From: a virus
Taxonomy: Duplodnaviria; Heunggongvirae; Uroviricota; Caudoviricetes
Virus record (IMG/VR): IMGVR_UViG_2529293142_000019
Location: 1-7,836 of that record
Length of the DNA stretch: 7,836 nucleotides
Strand: one strand, 5' to 3'
Part shown: positions 1-7,836 of the stretch, piece by piece
How the letters are laid out: every line of letters starts with the position of its first letter
Numbering within the stretch: position 1 is the stretch's first letter
Translations under genes and position numbers: made by a program
The notes under the pieces: generated by a model
Databases searched by the model: none
Told to the model about the DNA's origin: nothing
The model's input: only the letters and a program-made list of their open reading frames with translations

Positions 1-1431
1 AGTAATATCATTGCCCAGCTCGTGGCGGTCTTGCTGAATGGCAATATCGCGGGTGATGGCCACGATGCTGTCGATTTCTTCTGGATGGGCAAAGACCATC
101 ATATGCCAGTGCACGGTGCCGTCATGGTGAGGCTCCACCGTGCGGATGCCATACCAGCGCAGGCCGTCGCGGTTCAGTTTCTTGCGGACCGCCGCAAAAA
201 ACGTGTTAACCAGGTAATCGCTGGAGTCGCGCATGGTGGCCCCGTTCCATTTGGGATTCGGATGACCGTTCTCTGTTGTGGCGTGGTATTTTGACGGGCA
301 GGTGACAGTCAGAAACACCGCTTTGTCGCCACGGGCTTCGGCCAGAAGTTCCAGTCCCTTCATGGTGGCCATCATTTCTGCCTTACGGTGAACCGGGTTA
401 CTTACTCCCGCGTAATACACTGTCTCGAGATCAATCGTGAAGCCGTCTTCGTTTTCCAGTTCGAAGCTCTTCAGGAAGTCGCGGGTTTTCTCGCGCTGTG
501 CGCGAAACTCGCTTAACGCGTCCTGGCTCAGATAGGGTGATGTTTTTCTGGAAACCAGACAGGCGGCGCGGAGTTGTTCTTCTCTCCACTCGCAACGTAA
601 CAGCCACAGTTTGCGTTTCCACCAGTCCGCACAGGTCAGGCGAAGGATTGCGCCCGGCAGCAGTTCCGTATCCGGTTCGCTCTTGTTCAGGGCTTCGTAA
701 TGTGGCGGCATGTTGTGCAGGCGTAATGCGATACGAGCCAGCATCCGGTAAGCCTTCAACATTACATCCATGGTCAGCTCGCCATCTCTGGCACCAAAGC
801 CATCGCAGAGTGTTTCGAAGGTGCTGCTGAACATCGCCGCGGTCATGGTGGCCAGCATCTGTATCTGGTGCTTGTTGAGCTGCGGCAGGTAAAGCAAATC
901 GTCCAGGCGTTCGCGCCCGGCAAGGGAGCGATAACCCGGTGTCAGCCAGCGTCCGTCAGTGCGATCCAGACGTTCGAATATTTTGCGCAGGGTTCCGCGT
1001 GCATAGCGTTCCGCCTGCCAGCTCTTTTTGCCTTTCTGGCGATCGGCTTCCTGTTTTTTGCGCAGGAAAGAGAGGTGGCGGCTCAGTGGTTCACGCAGAT
1101 AAACAGGTAGTGCCTTTAGTGTGGCAAAGGCACGGGCTACCGGGTCTTGTTCTGTTGCCCGGCGCTTACTGATGATGCTCTGTGCCAGCTTTTCACGCTG
1201 TCCGGCTTCCTCAAGGGATGCCATGAGTTTTTTACCCATGGCGGATTGTGCGAAAAAGGCTTCCTCCTTCGCTTCCTGTTCTTCCTGTTCTTCCTGTGCC
1301 CTTTTGTCCGCCTCAAGGTAGTAACGGATGGCGCGTTGCAGGTCGGTTTCAGTTTCCTGCCTGCGCTCCGTAAATCTGGCCGGATCAATGGCTGGCCGTG
1401 GTTCATTCCAGCTCCATGCAAACTCACTCAT
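1..1431 (-). CDS. Replication initiation endonuclease, P2 gpA-like (HUH rolling-circle Rep); partial, N-terminal ~477 aa, C-terminus lies beyond the left window edge
   Basis: Uninterrupted minus-strand reading frame from ATG at 1431-1429 to position 1 (my own translation; it is missing from the ORF track because no stop falls in the window). Translation begins MSEFAWSWNEPRPAIDPARF and contains GIRTVEPHHDGTVHWHMMVFAHPEE, a His-hydrophobic-His motif typical of HUH Rep endonucleases. The start overlaps the stop of the upstream ORF (ATGA at 1428-1431). Position next to a P2-type int/C/cox switch fits gene A. Confidence 0.8.
   Translation of the reverse strand, partial: MSEFAWSWNEPRPAIDPARFTERRQETETDLQRAIRYYLEADKRAQEEQEEQEAKEEAFFAQSAMGKKLMASLEEAGQREKLAQSIISKRRATEQDPVARAFATLKALPVYLREPLSRHLSFLRKKQEADRQKGKKSWQAERYARGTLRKIFERLDRTDGRWLTPGYRSLAGRERLDDLLYLPQLNKHQIQMLATMTAAMFSSTFETLCDGFGARDGELTMDVMLKAYRMLARIALRLHNMPPHYEALNKSEPDTELLPGAILRLTCADWWKRKLWLLRCEWREEQLRAACLVSRKTSPYLSQDALSEFRAQREKTRDFLKSFELENEDGFTIDLETVYYAGVSNPVHRKAEMMATMKGLELLAEARGDKAVFLTVTCPSKYHATTENGHPNPKWNGATMRDSSDYLVNTFFAAVRKKLNRDGLRWYGIRTVEPHHDGTVHWHMMVFAHPEEIDSIVAITRDIAIQQDRHELGNDIT
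1272..1298. repeat. In-frame 9-bp tandem repeat (cttcctgtt x2 plus cttcctgtg) inside the gpA-like gene
   Basis: Three adjacent near-identical 9-mers on the plus strand; on the minus strand they encode an acidic QEEQEEQE stretch near the gpA N-terminus. Confidence 0.6.
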
Positions 1432-1817
1432 GGCTGGTATCCCGTCACGCGCTGCCACTCCTGCGAGAAGATGGCGGAAAGGCGGTTAAATTCAGCGGTG
1501 TATTCACTCAGCGAGGCACACCCGCCAGCAGTGCGATGCGCCAGCATTGCCGCGAATACGGAGGCCGGGGAGTCGTAATACGCCAGCAGTGATTCGCCGT
1601 GCGGTGTCAGGCAGTGCAACGCCAGTCCGTGTGGTGTGAAGTCCACGCGGTAGCAGTCGTCTACTGTGAAATAAAGGGTATCCACATTCTCCGGTTTTGT
1701 AGTGCGTGCTCTGTTGTCACGACCACGGATGTAAAGATCAAATAATCCCTGAAGAACGGGAGCCAGACGGGTGTCCTGTGTGCGCACCCATCTTGTGAAG
1801 TCATGAGCGTCAATCAT
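1428..1817 (-). CDS. Hypothetical protein (129 aa), translationally coupled to the gpA-like gene
   Basis: ORF with ATG at 1817-1815; its stop TGA (1430-1428) overlaps the gpA ATG as ATGA. Sits in the position of the small ORFs that precede gene A in P2-like phages. No recognisable motif. Confidence 0.55.
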   Translation of the reverse strand: MIDAHDFTRWVRTQDTRLAPVLQGLFDLYIRGRDNRARTTKPENVDTLYFTVDDCYRVDFTPHGLALHCLTPHGESLLAYYDSPASVFAAMLAHRTAGGCASLSEYTAEFNRLSAIFSQEWQRVTGYQP

Positions 1818-1889
1818 GCTGCAATTCTCTTTACTACAGATGTGCGAAGGCCTCCCGCCGCAAGGTGCAGGAAAGGCCCGGAACAGGAA

Positions 1890-2120
1890 TTAATGGAGTT
1901 TGTTTTGCTGCTGGATGAGCTGCTGAAGCTCGCGCAGATCATCCGCCAGATAACTGAAAACAGCGGATGAGTAGAGGTTTGAAAGTTCGCAGCTACGCTC
2001 ATGCAGCATATTGATGTGCATGATTTTAGCGACGCGGAATGCGCGGGAAAGTCTGCGGTTGATTTCAGTCTGGATGTGACGACGCTCCGCGATAGCGCGG
2101 TGCTGTTTGCGGTTTGCCAT
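1890..2120 (-). CDS. Hypothetical small basic protein (76 aa), first gene after the structured non-coding segment
   Basis: ATG at 2120-2118 preceded by AAGAGG about 7 nt upstream (minus strand reads ACAACCAAAGAGGCCACACC-ATG). Translation MANRKQHRAIAERRHIQTEINRRLSRAF... is Arg/Lys/His-rich with helical-looking composition. An alternative 224-aa ORF in another frame across this region looks non-coding. Confidence 0.55.
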   Translation of the reverse strand: MANRKQHRAIAERRHIQTEINRRLSRAFRVAKIMHINMLHERSCELSNLYSSAVFSYLADDLRELQQLIQQQNKLH

Positions 2121-2130
2121 GGTGTGGCCT

Positions 2131-2175
2131 CTTTGGTTGTAAGTTTTGAAAACTCACCATCCAGAGCTGCGAAAC
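2131..2175 (-). promoter_or_regulatory. Box module X: boxA (CTTTGGTTGT, 2131-2140) and boxB (GCTGCGAAAC, 2166-2175) in the leader of the 76-aa ORF; boxA abuts the ribosome-binding site
   Basis: Both 10-mers recur in the same order at 2326-2351 (module Y) and as an inverted copy at 2198-2220 (module M). On the minus-strand RNA, boxA lies immediately 5' of the AGAGG Shine-Dalgarno of the 76-aa ORF. Confidence 0.35.
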
Positions 2176-2183
2176 TGTGGGTG

Positions 2184-2257
2184 GCGAGACGTACGGGGTT
2201 CGCAGTACCGGCAACCAAAGAACCCGGCCCGACCGAAGTCGGCCCCGTACGCCCCGC
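2184..2257 (-). ncRNA. Candidate ~70-nt structured RNA element carrying the inverted box module M, enclosed by a long-range stem; P4 CI-RNA-like by architecture only
   Basis: Perfect 9-bp inverted repeat cgtacgggg (2190-2198) / ccccgtacg (2243-2251), extendable by ggcgag/cccgcc with one G-U on the minus-strand RNA. It encloses a 5-bp hairpin with a UUCG tetraloop on the minus strand (2229-2242) and the inverted boxes at 2198-2220. No ORF with coding character covers it. Confidence 0.3.
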
Positions 2258-2297
2258 CATAATTCTGACGCGAAAAAAACGTGGCAATACAGTACGC

Positions 2298-2320
2298 ACA
2301 AAAAAACCGCTGGCGCGGTT
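2298..2320 (-). terminator. Putative intrinsic terminator on the minus strand (short GC hairpin followed by a U-tract)
   Basis: Plus strand 2305-2320 aaccgc-tggc-gcggtt forms a 6-bp stem with a 4-nt loop; on the minus strand it is followed directly by a T-run (plus-strand A-run 2300-2306). It lies immediately 3' of box module Y on the minus-strand RNA. The stem is short, so strength is uncertain. Confidence 0.35.
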
Positions 2321-2325
2321 GTGCG

Positions 2326-2351
2326 CTTTGGTTGTCAGCAGGCTGCGAAAC
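2326..2351 (-). promoter_or_regulatory. Box module Y: boxA (CTTTGGTTGT, 2326-2335) and boxB (GCTGCGAAAC, 2342-2351) separated by 6 nt
   Basis: Direct repeat of module X with a shorter spacer. Its reverse complement matches module M (2198-2220) over 9 + 7 nt with the same 6-nt spacer. Confidence 0.35.
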
Positions 2352-2456
2352 CCGGCACCCGTTTTATGAGGTGCAGCGAAAATGTAACCTGACTGATTGC
2401 GGCATGGCAAGCGGTTTTTTTGTGAGAACGGCATACTAAAAAATCCTGATACTGCT

Positions 2457-2481
2457 CCGGCCAGCGGTTTGCACTGGCCGG
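2457..2481 (-). other. Perfect 8-bp GC-rich inverted repeat 6 nt downstream of the SPFH gene stop; possible 3' stabilising hairpin or atypical terminator
   Basis: ccggccag (2457-2464) and ctggccgg (2474-2481) with a 9-nt loop. On the minus strand the nearest U-run starts about 14 nt after the stem, so it is not a canonical rho-independent terminator. Confidence 0.3.
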
Positions 2482-2487
2482 GTGTCA

Positions 2488-3318
2488 TTACTTCACGGGA
2501 ACGAACGGAACAGCGGTGTTACTGGTCATGTATTGCGGCAGCGTGCCGTTCCATTTGTTGATCGCTTCCAGCTCCATAACGCCGGGATTCTGGCGCAGAG
2601 CTTCGCCGCGTAAACGAATGGCGTCGGCTTCAGCCTGGGCTTTTGTGCGAATGGCATCGGCCTGTCCGGCAGCTTCTGCGCGCAACATGTTGGCTTCTGC
2701 TTCGCGTTGCTTGACTTCCTGTTCGCGTTGCAGGGTTTTCTGGTTTGCCGTGACTTTGGCGTTAATGCTGTCGATAACGGTTGGCGGATATTCCGGTTTA
2801 CCGACATAAGAGAGGCTCATGACCTGAATACCGATGGGGGTCATCTCTTCCTGAATATCTTTAAGTGCTGAATCCAGCAGTTCAGACTTACCACCGTCGA
2901 TAAACTTATCGGTGGTCATTTTGCTGGCCAGTCGGTTGAGTGCATCGGCGATCTTCTGGCGCAGGTCAGTGTCGGTAATGTCGTCCACGCCTTTGCGGTA
3001 GGTCTGAAACACTGTGGTCACTTTGGATGGATCAACCTTGTAGGCCACGCCGATGTGATAGCCGATGGTTGTGCCATCGCTCATCTGGAAACTGAACGGC
3101 TCATCGTAGGTCTTCATTTGTTTGAAGGTCGGGAAGATGTAAACCTCGGTATTCCAGCCAGTCCAGTAGCGGCCAACGCCAACCACTTCGCCGACGCCTT
3201 TGTCGTCGCCCAGCTTGTTGACTTTGATGCCCACATTACCTGGCTCAACGCGATCGCAACCAACCAACAGGATGGCCGCAAAAAGCGGGATAATCTGAAA
3301 GAGTTTGAGTTTCTTCAT
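2488..3318 (-). CDS. SPFH / band-7 (prohibitin-HflK/C-like) domain lipoprotein, 276 aa
   Basis: N-terminus MKKLKLFQIIPLFAAILLVGCDR has a signal peptide with lipobox LVGC. A central SPFH-like region is followed by an Ala/Glu/Arg/Gln-rich coiled-coil stretch (QREQEVKQREAEANMLRAEAAGQADAIRTKAQAEADAIRLRGEALRQ) typical of SPFH proteins. AAGGA lies about 9 nt upstream of the ATG; the start overlaps the upstream ORF stop as ATGA (3315-3318). Confidence 0.8.
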   Translation of the reverse strand: MKKLKLFQIIPLFAAILLVGCDRVEPGNVGIKVNKLGDDKGVGEVVGVGRYWTGWNTEVYIFPTFKQMKTYDEPFSFQMSDGTTIGYHIGVAYKVDPSKVTTVFQTYRKGVDDITDTDLRQKIADALNRLASKMTTDKFIDGGKSELLDSALKDIQEEMTPIGIQVMSLSYVGKPEYPPTVIDSINAKVTANQKTLQREQEVKQREAEANMLRAEAAGQADAIRTKAQAEADAIRLRGEALRQNPGVMELEAINKWNGTLPQYMTSNTAVPFVPVK

Positions 3319-3518
3319 TGTTTGATTTCCTTGATGTACTTACTGAAAAGGCGAACAACGCCTGCCGGGTACAGCATGGCAATGAAAATGCCCAGCAATA
3401 CCAGGAAGGAGCTGTCTGATGAAATCATTCGGGGGAGTAGTCCTGCATACAGAATGAGAGAGACGAGGACGCATACCAGCGCCCACATGTATGCGCGAAA
3501 CCAGGTCTTTTTGTTCAT
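3315..3518 (-). CDS. Small membrane protein (67 aa, two predicted TM helices), coupled partner of the SPFH lipoprotein
   Basis: Translation MNKKTWFRAYMWALVCVLVSLILYAGLLPRMISSDSSFLVLLGIFIAMLYPAGVV has two hydrophobic segments. ATGA overlaps at both ends (3515-3518 and 3315-3318); AAGAGAG-type Shine-Dalgarno upstream. Confidence 0.6.
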   Translation of the reverse strand: MNKKTWFRAYMWALVCVLVSLILYAGLLPRMISSDSSFLVLLGIFIAMLYPAGVVRLFSKYIKEIKQ

Positions 3519-3733
3519 GTTGATTGCTCTCTTTTGTTATTCAGGAAAAAGTCAAAAACGTTATCGATGCGCATCATAAGTTCGCGCTGCATCGCTTCTG
3601 GTGTTTCCGGTTCGCCAGGCGACCCCAGCGTTGCGCAGAAATCAGCGATCTCGTGTTGAATGAGTTCTTTCAGCGTCAGTAAGGAATTCATGTGTGTGCG
3701 GCGATGCCTGCGTGTGATTCGCCTTCTGCTCAT
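3515..3733 (-). CDS. Hypothetical protein (72 aa) with a highly basic N-terminus
   Basis: ATG at 3733 preceded by AGGAG about 8 nt upstream; its start overlaps the upstream stop as ATGA (3730-3733). Translation begins MSRRRITRRHRRTH. No recognisable motif. Confidence 0.5.
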   Translation of the reverse strand: MSRRRITRRHRRTHMNSLLTLKELIQHEIADFCATLGSPGEPETPEAMQRELMMRIDNVFDFFLNNKREQST

Positions 3734-3933
3734 TTACGCTGCTCCTGTACCTGTCGGATAAGGTTTACCCGCGCCACATTAGTGGCGCAGAAATAAGTGC
3801 CGTCAGTGAGGTAGATGTGGTGTGCATCCTTTTCCGAACGATGTTTGTCGATAGTGGTAATCAGGCGTTCGTCGACCTCGTATTCGCGCCCTCTGGAGGT
3901 AAAGCGAACGACGGGAAAATGCTTAATTGCCAT
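3730..3933 (-). CDS. Hypothetical protein (67 aa from the ATG at 3933; the track ORF extends to a TTG at 3954)
   Basis: ATG at 3933-3931 is preceded by a strong purine-rich Shine-Dalgarno (AAAAAAAGGGGGGCA-ATG on the minus strand). The stop overlaps the next ATG. Confidence 0.5.
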   Translation of the reverse strand: MAIKHFPVVRFTSRGREYEVDERLITTIDKHRSEKDAHHIYLTDGTYFCATNVARVNLIRQVQEQRK

Positions 3934-3959
3934 TGCCCCCCTTTTTTTGTCCAATAACC

Positions 3960-4313
3960 CTATGCGTTAAATACGGCACGTTGCGCGTCATCAATGAATA
4001 CAGCTTGAGAGCGTTCTATCAGGCGGAGATTTGTCAGAAGCTCTGACTCTTTTGTGTGGTAAGGCGTTATCAGGTATTTGCCGTGCAGTTCGGCAATAAT
4101 GGTGTATTGCAGCATCATTGCTGAACCAAGAATATAAATGCAGCGCCCAATGCTGGACGGATTCATGGCTGCAACTGTTGACTGTGTTTTAAGAGTGTCG
4201 ATTTCTTTGCTCTGTTCCTCAATAATTTTAGCTGCGTCAGCGGTGATTTTTGCAATGGTCAGTGCGTGAAGTGCTGCCATGTGTTGGCTATGGTTCATGG
4301 CATCTTTAGCCAT
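3960..4313 (-). CDS. Hypothetical protein (117 aa; alternative start at ATG 4298 giving 112 aa)
   Basis: ORF with ATG at 4313 (GGAAG about 5 nt upstream). The internal ATG at 4298 overlaps the stop of a possible 26-codon upstream micro-ORF as ATGA. No recognisable motif. Confidence 0.5.
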   Translation of the reverse strand: MAKDAMNHSQHMAALHALTIAKITADAAKIIEEQSKEIDTLKTQSTVAAMNPSSIGRCIYILGSAMMLQYTIIAELHGKYLITPYHTKESELLTNLRLIERSQAVFIDDAQRAVFNA

Positions 4314-4467
4314 CTGGTCTTCCGCTTCAGATATTTTTTTAATGTGTCGATGATGCCTTCTTCTTTTGCGTTCATTTTATATCTCCGCTATTTACGTGTG
4401 CGAATACCTCCGTTAATACGGATGGTTTTCACGTTTTCTTATTTAATTTGATGTTTTATTTGTATCG

Positions 4468-4692
4468 TTATTCATCAGAGAAAAAACGCTCGATCTTTTT
4501 CACTGAATGAATAATTCGCATAATTCCAATGGCACAGGCCACCGAAATAATCAGAACAAGCCATGAGATAATATACTCATGCGATATTCCCCAGCTTATA
4601 CGGTTCAATATGTTCCCCGCATTCTGCGGCACAGATAAGCTCGGAAAGCTCGTTAAGTGCATCCAGATCATCAGCGTAAAAAGCCACGTCAT
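4468..4692 (-). CDS. Possible small membrane protein (74 aa); overlaps the upstream ORF out of frame, start uncertain
   Basis: ATG at 4692 with GGAG about 5 nt upstream; the C-terminal half (YIISWLVLIISVACAIGIMRII) is strongly hydrophobic. It overlaps 4577-4692 of the 80-aa ORF in another frame, so one of the two may be spurious or they truly overlap. Confidence 0.3.
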   Translation of the reverse strand: MTWLFTLMIWMHLTSFPSLSVPQNAGNILNRISWGISHEYIISWLVLIISVACAIGIMRIIHSVKKIERFFSDE

Positions 4693-4819
4693 ACAGACTC
4701 CGGATTGCTCTGGTTAATGAGTCACGGGCTGCACGTTCAGCATGAGCGCCTGATGCACTTAAGCGAAAATAAAAACGCTCAAGTGCTTTGTTAATGAGAG
4801 TTTTATATTCTTTGCCCAT
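4577..4819 (-). CDS. Hypothetical protein (80 aa from ATG 4819; the track start at 4822 is a GTG)
   Basis: AAAGGG about 7 nt upstream of the ATG; it follows the upstream stop (TAA at 4831-4833) by a short gap. Translation MGKEYKTLINKALERFYFRL... has protein-like composition. Confidence 0.5.
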   Translation of the reverse strand: MGKEYKTLINKALERFYFRLSASGAHAERAARDSLTRAIRSLYDVAFYADDLDALNELSELICAAECGEHIEPYKLGNIA

Positions 4820-4830
4820 CACAACGCCCT

Positions 4831-5109
4831 TTAATCTGCTTTCTGAATTTCAGCTTCTGAATCCATACAAATAATTTCGATATAGGGTTCATCGCCATTA
4901 ACCTGACGTGCCTTTTCAGCTTCGCTAATGATTTCGCGTACGGTCTGGTACGGAAGTTCCACAAACAATCGCGTGCCGTTCAGATAAAGGTAAGTGGCCA
5001 CATCTTTTTCTGCCGGGACTACAGCATCAATAGCTGATGCGCGTAACAACAACTCACCGCGAAAATCAATAAAGCGGATAAATACACCTTGTGCATGGTC
5101 TTTAGTCAT
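4831..5109 (-). CDS. Hypothetical acidic protein (92 aa from ATG 5109; the track ORF extends to a TTG at 5169)
   Basis: ATG at 5109 preceded by AGGTG about 4 nt upstream and by the upstream stop (TAA-CAGGTGCTTT-ATG). Translation MTKDHAQGVFIRFIDFRGELLLRASAIDAVV... has an acidic C-terminus. Confidence 0.5.
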   Translation of the reverse strand: MTKDHAQGVFIRFIDFRGELLLRASAIDAVVPAEKDVATYLYLNGTRLFVELPYQTVREIISEAEKARQVNGDEPYIEIICMDSEAEIQKAD

Positions 5110-5119
5110 AAAGCACCTG

Positions 5120-5578
5120 TTATAAATCAGCTTGTTTAATAAAACTTTGCCCACGAAGCAGACGATCAACTGTGCGAAGTGCTTCGTATAATGTGAAATC
5201 CTGCCCGAACTGATTGTCGCCGCAGTTCAATGCAAAAATGCGGTTTCCGGTAAATGGATTGCGTGGGCATCTGTGAACTACGATTCCAGCTTTTTCAATC
5301 AGCCAAGTGTGTTCGCCAATTTGTTTTACTGTATGGCCATCTGGCGTTGCGTGCGTCTCGCTTAGGCTGTAGCGAGAGTTGCTACGTGATGCACTGGTAG
5401 TGAAGCGGTTAGCGTGGCGTTCTGCGCCGTTGCGGAAGCGCTGTTGTGAAGAATTGCGCTGTTGCTTCATGTCAAAAACTCCGTACCTGTTTACTTCCCC
5501 GGCATAACGCCCATTTTCAAAATAATTGCGGCGAAATCCCATGTTATTGGGTTCGCTGTTTCGCTGTTGCTTATTCAT
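5120..5578 (-). CDS. Hypothetical protein (152 aa from ATG 5578) with an N-terminal Asn/Gln/Arg/Ser-rich low-complexity region and a C-terminal globular-looking domain
   Basis: ATG at 5578 preceded by AGAGGCACAAAAA-ATG; it starts 11 nt after the stop of the upstream small membrane ORF. The C-terminal part (HTWLIEKAGIVVHRCPRNPFTGNRIFALNCGDNQFGQDFTLYEALRTVDRL) looks folded. The track start at 5605 is a TTG. Confidence 0.5.
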   Translation of the reverse strand: MNKQQRNSEPNNMGFRRNYFENGRYAGEVNRYGVFDMKQQRNSSQQRFRNGAERHANRFTTSASRSNSRYSLSETHATPDGHTVKQIGEHTWLIEKAGIVVHRCPRNPFTGNRIFALNCGDNQFGQDFTLYEALRTVDRLLRGQSFIKQADL

Positions 5579-5589
5579 TTTTTGTGCCT

Positions 5590-5796
5590 CTACCCGATAA
5601 GCCAAATAACAAACGCTATGAGCACCGCGCCAATAGTGGTCGGGAAAAGACCTCTGGTATAGGCGGCGAGGTAATGAACGTTGAGAACAATAAAGCGCTC
5701 TTTTTGTCCTGTTAGCTTGTTAAGCAGATAAATCGCTATTACACCCACTTCCAGGAATACAAGGTTCAGAATGGCGCTGATGATATTGCTGGTCAT
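5590..5796 (-). CDS. Possible small membrane protein (68 aa, two hydrophobic helices); start uncertain
   Basis: The hydrophobic C-terminal segment of track ORF 5590..6045 is MTSNIISAILNLVFLEVGVIAIYLL...IGAVLIAFVIWLIG. The longer N-terminal extension overlaps the Cox-like gene out of frame and looks non-coding. The ATG at 5796 has no clear Shine-Dalgarno, hence low confidence. Confidence 0.4.
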   Translation of the reverse strand: MTSNIISAILNLVFLEVGVIAIYLLNKLTGQKERFIVLNVHYLAAYTRGLFPTTIGAVLIAFVIWLIG

Positions 5797-5806
5797 TTTT
5801 GTGTGT

Positions 5807-6328
5807 TTAGTTGCCTTCGCTGCTTTTGAGTCGCTCCAGCTTTGAACTTCTGCCTGTATAAACTCGCTTACCGTTAATGGTCTGGCAGTCTTCTTTATTA
5901 GCTGGAAAGAACTTTCTTTTCTGGCGGTCATACGTCCAGTAACTTTTCCAGTTGTGCCATTCTGGTGGCTCAAGTTCCGGTAGCTCGTCAGCCAGTGCGT
6001 CCCACTCTTTGGCGTTAAACCACCATACTCCGTCTGAGTTTTCATCTTCCGGGTTTGTGCGCGTCTTGTGTCCCGGCATTTGACCGCGATGAATGGCTAC
6101 GCGCAGTGCAGATTTTGTTAGCCCAATATATGCCGCGCCTTTTTCCAGAGAGCAAAGCCCGGCGATCGGACCATCCAGCCGTAAAGTCGCTCCTTTTTTG
6201 TAGGAACGCTTTTTCTTGTTTTCTTCGTGTTCGTCGTCGTTGGCGGCATCAATGGATCCGCTGAGTGCGTCACTTTCCTGAAGTGGTTGGTGGTCAGATA
6301 ACTCTTTATCGGCAATGAAGTCCCGCAT
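5807..6328 (-). CDS. Cox/excisionase-like HTH DNA-binding protein, first gene of the early operon, unusually long (173 aa) with an acidic N-terminal extension
   Basis: ATG at 6328 preceded by AGAGGA 6 nt upstream, and divergent from the repressor gene. The central segment LCSLEKGAAYIGLTKSALRVAIHRGQMPGHK followed by WWFNAKEW resembles the winged-helix excisionase/Cox-Apl family arrangement. Sits where cox lies in P2. Assignment is from motif resemblance only. Confidence 0.5.
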   Translation of the reverse strand: MRDFIADKELSDHQPLQESDALSGSIDAANDDEHEENKKKRSYKKGATLRLDGPIAGLCSLEKGAAYIGLTKSALRVAIHRGQMPGHKTRTNPEDENSDGVWWFNAKEWDALADELPELEPPEWHNWKSYWTYDRQKRKFFPANKEDCQTINGKRVYTGRSSKLERLKSSEGN

Positions 6329-6390
6329 TTGTTATCCTCTTGCGTTGGTGCGCTTGTCGCGCCTTGTGATGGTTTGTTTTGGCTTGTAAA

Positions 6391-6448
6391 GATAACCAAA
6401 TGGTTATCTTTGTGCGAGAGGTTAATACTCAAATGGTTATCTTGTCAA
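6391..6448. promoter_or_regulatory. Lysis-lysogeny switch region: 14-bp direct-repeat candidate operators plus a consensus -35 for the leftward early promoter
   Basis: caaatggttatctt occurs at 6397-6410 and 6430-6443 (33 bp apart, about three helical turns). The first copy is also part of an inverted repeat gataacc-aaat-ggttatc (6391-6408). The minus strand carries a perfect TTGACA (plus-strand tgtcaa, 6443-6448) abutting repeat 2, with a weak TATTAA candidate -10 (6422-6427) lying between the repeats. In P2 the C repressor binds direct repeats flanking the -10 of Pe. Confidence 0.5.
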
Positions 6449-6774
6449 TAGACTATGCAAAAAAGTTACGTCAGATACGTAAGGCGGAAGGGTTAACACA
6501 AAAGCAGTTTGCGGATATTACTGGGTTGTCTTTGGCAACCATAAGGAATTACGAATCGGGGCAAAAGAACGCTAGAGCAAAAATCGTTGAGGCGGTTCTG
6601 CAAGTCGATCGCTTTGAAAAATACATGCTGTGGCTAATAAAAGATAAGACGCTACCTGTCGCCGGGCAGATTGCACCGGCTCTCTCTCTTGATGGCTCTA
6701 TTCAGTCGGAGGGCGATCAGGTTTCAATCGGCATTACCCAAAAATCACCCCGATCAGGCCGCAATGTTGGCTGA
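6433..6774 (+). CDS. Immunity repressor, P2 C-like, HTH (XRE-type), 113 aa from ATG 6433 (the ORF is open from a TTG at 6379; an alternative ATG is at 6400)
   Basis: HTH motif LTQKQFADITGLSLATIRNYESG. The C-terminal region KYMLWLIKDKTLPVAGQIAPALSLDG resembles the P2 C repressor as I recall it. Divergent from the Cox-like gene and directly upstream of int on the same strand, as in P2 (C then int). GAGAGG lies 11 nt upstream of ATG 6433. Confidence 0.75.
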   Translation: MVILSIDYAKKLRQIRKAEGLTQKQFADITGLSLATIRNYESGQKNARAKIVEAVLQVDRFEKYMLWLIKDKTLPVAGQIAPALSLDGSIQSEGDQVSIGITQKSPRSGRNVG

Positions 6775-6843
6775 CTCTACACATTGAGCGAATTACATAT
6801 CGCAAGGAGTGTTTAGTTAATTTATCCGTTGGAGGGGCTAATC

Positions 6844-7836
6844 ATGTCGATTAAGCAACTCAAAGACGGACGTTATCAGGTCGATGTCAGACCGCAGGGG
6901 GCGGAAGGAAAGCGGATTCGAAAAATCTTTGCCCTGAAATCAAAGGCTCAGGAGTTTGAGAAGTATGTGTTACAGAACTTTCATGACAAGCCATGGCAGG
7001 CTAAGCCAGCTGATCAGCGGCGATTATCAGAGCTGCTTGATGCGTGGTGGATGCTTGATGGGCGTAATCAGGCTTACGGGGATAGCTACAGGGTTAGGCT
7101 AGGGAAGGTTGTTCGTGAAATGGGAGATCCTCGCGCCAGTCAGATGACGCGAAAATTTATGCTTGAATATCGGTCAGAGAAATTACAGGCCGGATTAATG
7201 CCGTCCAGTATTAATCGTGACTTATGCGTACTGTCTACCATGTTCACGGTGCTGATTGAAGCTGAGGTCTTTCACAACGCGAACCCTGTACGCGGTATAC
7301 GAAAACTGAAAGTTCAGAACACAGAGATGGCCTTTCTTTCTGATGATGAGATTGAACGGCTTCTTGAGCGACTGGAGGGTGATGCGCGTCGTGTTGCCAT
7401 TCTGTGTCTTTCTACTGGTGCCCGATGGAGTGAAGCATCGGAACTACGTGGAGAGCATATCGTTGGCAACCGGGTGACGTTCTTTAACACCAAAAACGGA
7501 AAATCCCGTTCGGTTCCTGTGGCGGATTCGGTCGTGCCTCTGATTAAAACCCGTCGAACGGGGTTATTGTATCAGGTTGATTATCTGAAGTTCCGGGAGA
7601 TTCTTCAGGAGGTGAAACCGGATTTGCCGAAGGGGCAGGCTACGCATGTCATGCGTCATACGTTTGCCACACACTTTATGATGAATGGCGGAAATATTGT
7701 TACGTTGCAACGAATCCTGGGGCACGCAACGATTCAGCAAACAATGACGTACGCTCATTTTTCGCCGGACTTTTTACAGGACGCGATCAACTTTAATCCG
7801 CTGGCTGAAAGTGTCCATAAACTGTCCATCGATTAG
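6844..7836 (+). CDS. int: Tyrosine integrase (phage integrase family, P2 Int-like), 330 aa
   Basis: GGAGG 8 nt upstream of ATG 6844 (the track start at 6829 is a TTG). The N-terminus MSIKQLKDGRYQVDVRPQG parallels P2 Int. C-terminal catalytic signature present: ARWSE (Arg), HVMRHTFATHF (His-x-x-Arg), LGHATIQQTMTYAHF (catalytic Tyr). The stop TAG is at 7834-7836, the window end. Confidence 0.9.
   Translation: MSIKQLKDGRYQVDVRPQGAEGKRIRKIFALKSKAQEFEKYVLQNFHDKPWQAKPADQRRLSELLDAWWMLDGRNQAYGDSYRVRLGKVVREMGDPRASQMTRKFMLEYRSEKLQAGLMPSSINRDLCVLSTMFTVLIEAEVFHNANPVRGIRKLKVQNTEMAFLSDDEIERLLERLEGDARRVAILCLSTGARWSEASELRGEHIVGNRVTFFNTKNGKSRSVPVADSVVPLIKTRRTGLLYQVDYLKFREILQEVKPDLPKGQATHVMRHTFATHFMMNGGNIVTLQRILGHATIQQTMTYAHFSPDFLQDAINFNPLAESVHKLSID

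Follow-up and report, generated by a model that had tools for sequence, protein, structure and literature searches.

In phage P2, the early operon reads cox-orf78-B-orf80-orf81-orf82-orf83-A and leads from the Cox gene through a series of small genes to the gene of the rolling-circle endonuclease A. In phage 186, the order is apl-cII-fil-dhr-...-A, and Fil and Dhr are directed against the host, as they block cell division and host replication, respectively. Phage P88 is inducible and forms plaques, and its early genes were left untreated in the respective paper (PMC5285337). Here, we analyzed a stretch of viral DNA of 7836 bp, hereafter termed the window, which comprises positions 1 to 7,836 of the IMG/VR virus record IMGVR_UViG_2529293142_000019, with emphasis on the run of small genes between positions 3515 and 5796 of its minus strand. 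An earlier note, made from the letters alone, had described this run as a dense early operon of eight small open reading frames (ORFs) between a Cox-like gene and a module encoding an SPFH protein. Both the dense same-strand arrangement and the early operon of a P2/186-type temperate phage, in which int and C are opposed to cox, the small genes and A, are borne out, and the region shows 92-97% identity to P88-like prophages and phages. Overall, this description proved largely right, with four gene models in need of correction. Taken together, we consider it rather probable that the region represents a P88-type early lytic operon consisting of a conserved core and cassettes, the products of which would act as stoichiometric binders.

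Prophages in complete E. coli genomes align with all 7836 bp of the window at 97.5% identity, and those matching it end to end are integrated beside dmsA. The nearest named phages are P88 and its relatives (Xuanwuvirus, Peduoviridae), with 92-93% identity across the shared parts. P88 itself matches 51% of the 7.8-kb window, at 92.3% identity and with the same gene order, a comparison made for a single window, while assignment to a genus needs genome-wide identity. Some part of the region 3515-5796 is present in 1383 of the 5426 complete E. coli genomes, corresponding to approximately one quarter, and at least 80% of it in 89 of them. Moreover, the layout is that of the P2 family. The genes int (6829-7836) and C (6433-6774; HTH_3, E 2.7e-11) are located on the plus strand, and the first gene of the early operon, the 173-codon cox gene (6328-5807), is located on the minus strand, its identity being indicated by PF10743 (E 6e-7), by an hhalign probability of 92% to P2 Cox and by the RefSeq name. 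In RefSeq and in the annotated phages, the collinear region has the gpA-type replication endonuclease gene A directly downstream, at the end of the operon and on the same strand, and in the window this gene extends past the left end (<1422); in line with this, PF05840 was found in the related loci L088, L089 and L095. RefSeq lists the genes of the 97.5% identical prophages in the order phage integrase, helix-turn-helix (HTH) repressor, Cox-family protein, a run of hypothetical proteins, SPFH protein and an 'ash' pseudogene, followed by hypothetical genes of 231 and 390 nucleotides and the replication endonuclease, and the 231-nucleotide gene occupies the slot named 'derepression protein' in P88. 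Judged by gene order and identity, these data show that the window covers the int-C / cox-...-A switch and early region of a P88-like (Xuanwuvirus-type, P2-family) prophage.

Downstream of cox, all on the minus strand, the operon comprises tm68 (5590-5796; 68 amino acids with two hydrophobic segments; phrog_14475), a DUF4761 gene (5120-5578; 152 amino acids), the gene for the acidic 92-amino acid protein ac92 (4831-5109; phrog_3800) and a DUF4754 gene (4577-4819; 80 amino acids). These are followed by the frameshifted remnant of a mini-gene for a 37-amino acid protein with a single transmembrane (TM) segment (4468-4580, ATG at 4580), as recognized by comparison with relatives, a frameshifted gene of 138 codons (3960-4375, ATG at 4375; phrog_9338), p67 (3730-3933; basic, 67 amino acids, preceded by a strong Shine-Dalgarno sequence; phrog_3459) and p72 (3515-3733; 72 amino acids; phrog_4144). 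Further downstream, a context cassette encodes the two-TM protein tm67 (3315-3518; 67 amino acids; phrog_1130) and an SPFH/Band-7 lipoprotein of 276 amino acids (2488-3318). The short gaps and ATGA overlaps that the earlier note had pointed out are present: 10-11 nucleotides separate cox from tm68, tm68 from DUF4761, DUF4761 from ac92 and ac92 from DUF4754, and four ATGA overlaps connect DUF4754 with the mini-gene, p67 with p72, p72 with tm67 and tm67 with the SPFH gene. The 138-codon gene is flanked by wider gaps of 92 nucleotides before and 26 nucleotides after it.

Conservation and selection were determined on 80 related viral contigs together with RefSeq and phage loci. The same gene order was observed in more than 80 related prophages, and every real ORF is under purifying selection, with ratios of nonsynonymous to synonymous polymorphism (pN/pS) between 0.10 and 0.38. 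The lowest value was obtained for the core of DUF4761 (0.10), followed by p67 (0.11), DUF4754 (0.14), ac92 (0.17), p72 (0.18), the 36-codon N-terminal extension of DUF4761 (0.21), the 117-amino acid part of the 138-codon gene (0.36) and tm68 (0.38). Thus, six of the eight ORFs had been delimited correctly (5590-5796, 5120-5578, 4831-5109, 4577-4819, 3730-3933 and 3515-3733), and two (4468-4692 and 3960-4313) had not. In contrast to the earlier statement that none can be placed in a known family, every real gene belongs to a PHROG. In addition, residues 48-152 of the DUF4761 protein match positions 1-105 of the 105 positions of PF15958 with 230.5 bits, and the DUF4754 protein matches PF15946 over its full length (1-80 of 80) with 181.7 bits, the gathering threshold being 27 in both cases. 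That no function can be assigned was confirmed, as Pfam, NCBIfam, PHROGs, PADLOC, sequence profiles of the PDB, and Foldseek with two AlphaFold2 (AF2) models yielded none. The families phrog_14475, 3800, 9338, 3459 and 4144, which contain tm68, ac92, the 138-codon gene, p67 and p72, are all of unknown function, and permissive thresholds in the family-library scans of all ORFs still returned only DUFs or PHROGs of this kind. None of the small ORFs matched NCBIfam, and the PADLOC models for known defense systems gave chance-level matches only (E about 0.01). The families are small. That of ac92 consists of 109 clusters at 90% identity, the lowest being 52% identical, from Escherichia, Citrobacter and Salmonella, and that of p67 of 63 clusters. 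The DUF4761 family comprises 145 clusters, all from Enterobacteriaceae save one record labeled Vagococcus, and when 185,579 species genomes were scanned with a pattern, three of them contained it. For DUF4754, an exhaustive read of 1.84 billion representatives yielded 21. As far as the database sequences tell, the families of this early operon are tiny, narrow and confined to the Enterobacteriaceae.

Both mis-delimited ORFs are connected with frameshifts. The 74-amino acid ORF 4468-4692, which had been taken for a two-TM protein, is an artefact that joins the out-of-frame 3′-end of DUF4754 to the 37-codon gene, and a Kyte-Doolittle scan gave one segment instead of two; of the two mini-proteins assigned two TM segments, only tm68 retains this description. 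The N-terminal half of the artefact (4582-4692), which lies in an alternative frame of DUF4754, has no PHROG match and no such gene product is on record. Its pN/pS of 1.32 in that frame indicates that it is non-coding. The actual mini-gene (consensus MSIFISWLVLIISVACAIGIMRIIHSVKKIERFFTGE), which encodes one hydrophobic segment, has its start codon within the ATGA that it shares with DUF4754. When the window was compared with 77 related loci, all of the latter had an intact copy, and the window was the only one of the 78 sequences without. Here, a T3>T2 shift after codon 3 (~4571) leaves nine codons readable from the ATG and opens the 74-amino acid frame reported previously. Likewise, the 117-amino acid ORF 3960-4313 is the 3′-remnant of the 138-codon gene, matching positions 22-138 of the 138 positions of phrog_9338, and the gene is broken by an A8>A7 change at ~4340. 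Over 7.8 kb, the window differs from the close relative EC571 by single-nucleotide indels at only three sites, all of which fall within 3941-4569. Both frameshifts are unique among about 80 loci. A homopolymer sequencing error was rejected as their source, because independent assemblies share the frameshifts: L095 (99.5% identical) has both, and L096 (100% identical across 2.8 kb) has the A7 allele. Both frameshifts are therefore real alleles of this prophage lineage. We also noted that int, C, cox, the SPFH gene and the beginning of A are still open in this sublineage, in which both the mini-TM and the 138-codon genes have been lost. The 37-amino acid ORF was further compared with the type I toxins Hok, Ldr and TisB; its ATGA coupling to DUF4754 within the operon does not fit their stand-alone layout. 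An Rfam scan of the whole window at gathering thresholds detected only C4 and isrK (2177-2374) and nothing near 4468-4580, a search that an undescribed antisense RNA could escape.

Core genes and cassettes were distinguished by a gene presence table and by anchor-to-anchor distances in the related loci. DUF4761, ac92, DUF4754, the 37-codon gene, p67 and the p72-type C-domain are nearly universal. The slot between cox and DUF4761 contains tm68, another gene or nothing; tm68 is present in about 40% of the related loci, and a copy with 73.5% identity is found in the distant locus L088. The second slot, between the 37-codon gene and p67, is either empty (86 nucleotides; 35 loci) or harbors, in ~530 nucleotides, a gene of 138 or 136 codons (~40 loci); the 138-codon gene is present in about half of the related loci. 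The third slot, from p67 to the isrK/C4 RNA, measures 618-638, ~1360 (as in the window) or ~1700 nucleotides, depending on its content of winged helix-turn-helix (wHTH), Ead-like and tm67-SPFH genes, and the tm67-SPFH cassette is present in about 40% of the related loci. In the distant loci L086-L089, in which DUF4754 is 38-45% identical, the order cox...DUF4761, ac92 or another gene or nothing, DUF4754, a TM gene of 41 codons, a p67-like gene (34% identical) and a p72-like gene of 70 codons is kept, followed later by the derepression gene, a 137-codon gene and gpA. The 41-codon homologs of the mini-gene occur in L087-L089, where they overlap DUF4754 by 4 nucleotides. In L087 and L089, the p67-like gene comes directly after the 41-codon gene, whereas in L088 two other genes separate these two, and a ParE-like gene separates the p67-like from the p72-like gene. 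The ac92 gene, near-core otherwise, is absent from L089. These comparisons do not support the view that the small ORFs are mostly accessory cargo, as DUF4761, DUF4754, the 37-41-codon TM gene, p67 and the p72-like gene remain syntenic even at 34-45% identity. The presence and spacing data thus show a lineage core of DUF4761, DUF4754, the mini-TM gene, p67 and p72, to which ac92 is usually added. By the same comparison, only tm68, the 138-codon gene and tm67-SPFH are shown to be cassettes, each at one of three fixed slots.

Within this core, p72 required closer inspection. It is ATGA-coupled to p67 and combines an Arg-rich N-terminus with a C-domain of ~45 amino acids that is common to 'Ead/Ea22-like' proteins of 99-104 amino acids (phrog_4144), and RefSeq marks it as an N-terminally truncated pseudogene. 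However, L088 and L089 each have, after the p67-like gene, a p72-like gene of 70 codons whose product is 33-35% identical over residues 3-65, and the interpretation as a truncated Ead-like pseudogene was dropped once these homologs, coupled to p67-like genes in distant loci, had been found. By homology, p72 is probably an intact member of a family of 70-72 amino acids.

The DUF4761 protein is very basic as a whole (isoelectric point (pI) 10.2). Its N-terminus, which had been described as disordered, is basic (pI 11.1), and the AF2 model is of low confidence there, with a predicted local distance difference test (pLDDT) below 50 for residues 1-14 and most of residues 39-68. Yet this poorly modeled region is nearly invariant in sequence. 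Residues ~72-145 form a domain of five strands and a helix with moderate confidence (pLDDT 72-86). RefSeq places the start of the gene at the internal position 5470, which results in 116 amino acids, and the 152-amino acid form is called in 1217 database members. We prefer the longer form, because the spacing of 11 nucleotides to tm68 is kept exactly as in L088 and because the additional 36 codons are in frame, bounded by a 14-nucleotide repeat at both ends, and evolve as coding sequence (pN/pS 0.21). On these sequence grounds, the 152-amino acid start appears to be the better gene model here. The repeat (AAGCAACAGCGMAA on the coding strand) is located at 5454-5467 and 5559-5572, at both candidate starts, and the 36-codon in-frame insertion between the copies is absent from L088 and P88; this bracket suggests a recombination event at the 5′-end of the gene. 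With the DUF4761 model, Foldseek returned no PDB match below E 1e-3. The best one, AcrIF24 (E 0.48, TM-score 0.23, 56 aligned columns), was rejected as an identity for DUF4761 owing to its lack of significance. Similarly, fusions of 211 amino acids that might have linked DUF4761 to ac92 in the manner of a Rosetta stone were discarded as weak evidence, as each occurs as a singleton and results from a frameshift into an open alternative frame, with four different positions involved in all.

The ORF 4831-5109 had been noted as acidic, in agreement with a pI of 4.6 and a net charge of -7 for ac92. Its AF2 model is confident (pLDDT 84, predicted template modeling score 0.75) and reveals five strands, a long helix and an acidic tail. 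As for DUF4761, no PDB structure scored below E 1e-3; the best matches, LytTR, PH-like and Sac7d, were at E 0.1 or above, and the LytTR and PH-like resemblances were rejected as non-significant. The folds of these two modeled proteins hence have no solved relative in the PDB as searched with Foldseek. In BFVD, ac92 resembles many unnamed phage proteins of 60-110 amino acids (E about 2e-3, TM-score 0.5-0.6). A DNA mimic of the Ocr/ArdA type was likewise discarded, given the net charge of only -7 and the lack of a PDB sequence or fold match. As a separate observation, many database alleles of ac92 with 101-104 amino acids (e.g., P0038, P0043, P0046, P0061 and P0083) exchange the acidic C-terminal tail for a basic one (...NPISKLFVWIQKLKFRKQIKGRCDGQRI), by frameshifts at differing positions into an open alternative frame of 53 codons (4803-4964, minus strand) that runs into the DUF4754 start. 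The DUF4754 protein is 100% identical in most related loci and, by its composition, probably helical; a match to designed helical repeats among the PDB profiles (E 2e-5) was attributed to composition only. Close to their C-termini, the neighboring proteins both contain (D/I)EPY, a conserved motif located at residues 74-77 of ac92 (DEPYIEII) and 72-75 of DUF4754 (IEPYKL), which may be a coincidence or a shared short binding motif.

We next turn to what these proteins might do. By analogy with P2 and 186, the operon would be transcribed from a C-repressed early promoter next to C and would remain silent in the lysogen, to be switched on at infection or induction. Between C and cox, a 19-nucleotide direct repeat (ATAMYCAAATGGTTATCTT) occurs twice, 33 nucleotides apart (6392-6443); each copy holds the palindrome CCAAATGG, and the pair overlaps the start codon of C. 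By comparison with O1/O2 of P2, these repeats are candidate operators of the C repressor at the early promoter, the location of which we infer from them together with the arrangement in P2. After Cox, expression would then proceed through the small genes, which lie close together or are translationally coupled, up to the endonuclease A, and the small proteins may bind host or phage proteins stoichiometrically in the first minutes of lytic growth. Such a binding role is suggested by their size of 37-152 amino acids, by the lack of a match to enzyme families and by the neighborhood, and the sole confident model, that of ac92, has a compact binding-type fold. They would thereby fill the niche of Fil and Dhr in 186 and of orf78/B/orf80-83 in P2. 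By this analogy, we tentatively favor host takeover of the Fil/Dhr kind as the most likely reading. Across the genes, however, the possible roles are not mutually exclusive.

Several observations weigh against this interpretation. The P2 and 186 proteins were compared by hhalign, namely P2 cox, orf78, B, orf80-83 and orf91 and 186 apl, cII, fil, dhr, gp31-34, orf84, tum and orf97. Clear homology of each ORF to core early proteins of these phages, which would have refuted the idea put forward in the earlier note, was not found: all probabilities were below 10% except for Cox, and neither Fil nor Dhr is related to these families in this comparison; the functional analogy thus derives from position only. 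Proteins of SEN5/phiT5282H and small alignments of Fil and Dhr likewise remained below 10% in hhalign, apart from DUF4761 itself, and PDB sequence-profile searches were negative for DUF4761, ac92, DUF4754, the 138-codon gene and p67. Moreover, no paper was found on DUF4761, DUF4754 or the RefSeq accessions, and a consensus promoter scan missed the early promoter between C and cox. Finally, at least the upkeep of the prophage can dispense with the mini-TM gene, as shown by this lineage, which has lost it although it is near-universal otherwise.

It is unlikely, in our judgment, that some of the small genes (ac92, DUF4761, tm68 and the 138-codon cassette) encode anti-defense proteins acting early against restriction or abortive infection. 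Their small size and early-operon position, the acidity of ac92, and the coming and going of tm68 and the 138-codon gene, as often seen with counter-defense genes, would agree with such a role; proteins without a fold match in the PDB could represent new inhibitors, and AcrIF24 is the best, though non-significant, PDB match of DUF4761. However, solved anti-defense proteins show no significant similarity, ac92 is rich in β-strands and too weakly charged for a DNA mimic, and the core genes are near-invariant, as exemplified by DUF4754, whereas arms-race genes usually diversify. In a 2026 survey of 8165 P2-like prophages, anti-defense genes recognizable by AntiDefenseFinder were present in only 28, which indicates only a lack of known ones, and the defense hotspots lie between gpA and gpQ and beside int, outside the early operon (PMC13586616). 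It is possible, if doubtful, that the core genes instead serve the development of the phage, either as helpers of the A endonuclease in the place of gpB or as modulators of C/Cox or of the C4-RNA/derepression switch. The strict cox-to-A synteny in distant relatives, the strong purifying selection, and the basic pI of DUF4761, which fits nucleic-acid binding, argue in this direction, as do the wHTH regulators in the same stretch of other operon alleles and the fact that hhalign did not detect a gpB homolog. Phage 186, however, relies on host functions in place of a gpB equivalent, Foldseek recognized no DNA-binding or helicase-loader fold in DUF4761 and ac92, and neither ac92 nor the mini-TM gene is always present.

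That the membrane proteins (tm68, the 37-amino acid peptide and tm67-SPFH) are morons for lysogenic conversion or superinfection exclusion, expressed from the prophage, also seems improbable to us. The classification of phrog_1130 (tm67) as moron/membrane protein, the occurrence of the SPFH cassette in Shiga toxin (Stx) phages and on plasmids, and the cassette behavior of tm68 and tm67-SPFH fit this explanation. However, all of these genes are on the strand of the early operon with 4-nucleotide overlaps or gaps of 10-11 nucleotides to the genes upstream, promoter-like sites are no more common than expected by chance (3 found vs. 5.0 expected in the consensus scan), and no PADLOC defense model matched. 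The notion that the region is non-coding or decaying and that its ORFs are open by chance can be practically dismissed. One of the eight, the 74-amino acid ORF, is indeed an artefact and two genes are frameshifted, but the selection values, the conserved order, the Shine-Dalgarno sequences and ATGA coupling, and the family membership of all others speak against it, as does the inducible and plaque-forming nature of P88 (PMC5285337); for seven gene positions, it is refuted by conservation.

Both RefSeq and the annotation of phage P88 already cover this locus, which is a routine component of a prophage that is very common in E. coli. What this analysis adds to the annotation is the distinction of core and cassettes, the 37-codon gene, the 152-amino acid start of DUF4761, the likely intact status of p72 and two real frameshifts. 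The core proteins are strongly conserved, restricted to the Enterobacteriaceae and without detectable relatives of known function, and are therefore reasonable, albeit unprioritised, candidates for toxicity and phage-challenge screens. More speculatively, and with doubt, the block of DUF4761, (ac92), DUF4754 and the 37-amino acid TM protein, perhaps together with p67 and p72, might encode a hitherto unrecognized group of small proteins that inhibit the machinery or the immunity of the host; approximately a quarter of E. coli genomes carry this block.

Several further features were observed outside of the run of small genes. The Rfam C4 antisense RNA (87 bits) and isrK (66 bits), together at 2177-2374 on the minus strand, are located just upstream of a PF25738 'Derepression' gene (1890-2120, minus strand), and the PGAP annotation labels the RNA region as an 'ash family' pseudogene. 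Placed inside a P2-type early operon, this combination looks like the antisense-RNA and antirepressor module of the c4/ant type of P1. The tm67-SPFH cassette is 92% identical in Stx2a-converting phages, where it is annotated as 'serine protease', and did not match any PADLOC model. Parts of the window match plasmid records at 228 places. Moreover, P88-like phages carry genes for ParM and a partition protein 3′ of A, past the left end of the window (L001, 1-20; L005, 245-1520); these are plasmid-segregation genes and unusual for an integrating phage of the P2 family.

Compared with the known systems, the locus is closest to P88, in which the order Cox, DUF4761, a 92-amino acid protein, DUF4754, a 37-amino acid membrane protein, a 67-amino acid protein, ..., tm67, SPFH, derepression protein and A is like that of the window, with 80-100% protein identity and ~92% DNA identity in the shared parts. 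However, the immunity type differs (C 37% and Cox 31% identical). In addition, the window contains tm68, the 36-amino acid N-terminal extension of DUF4761 and the broken 138-codon cassette, and p72 replaces the wHTH and Ead/Ea22-like pair of P88. With P2, the locus shares the divergent C/int vs. cox switch, Cox in the first position and small genes ending at A. In contrast, the small genes are not detectably related (hhalign below 10%), a gpB homolog was not detected here, and this lineage adds the C4/isrK RNA and the derepression gene before A. Phage 186 has its host-aimed small early proteins in the same place. In SEN5/phiT5282H (cox-hyp-DUF4761-fil-dhr-dam-A), a minimal DUF4761 of 68 amino acids directly precedes homologs of Fil and Dhr. 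In contrast to 186 and SEN5/phiT5282H, no Fil or Dhr homolog was detected by hhalign in the window, and DUF4761 alone is shared with SEN5/phiT5282H, with 37% identity over the core domain. By neighborhood only, the SEN5/phiT5282H context would thus place DUF4761 among the host-directed early genes.

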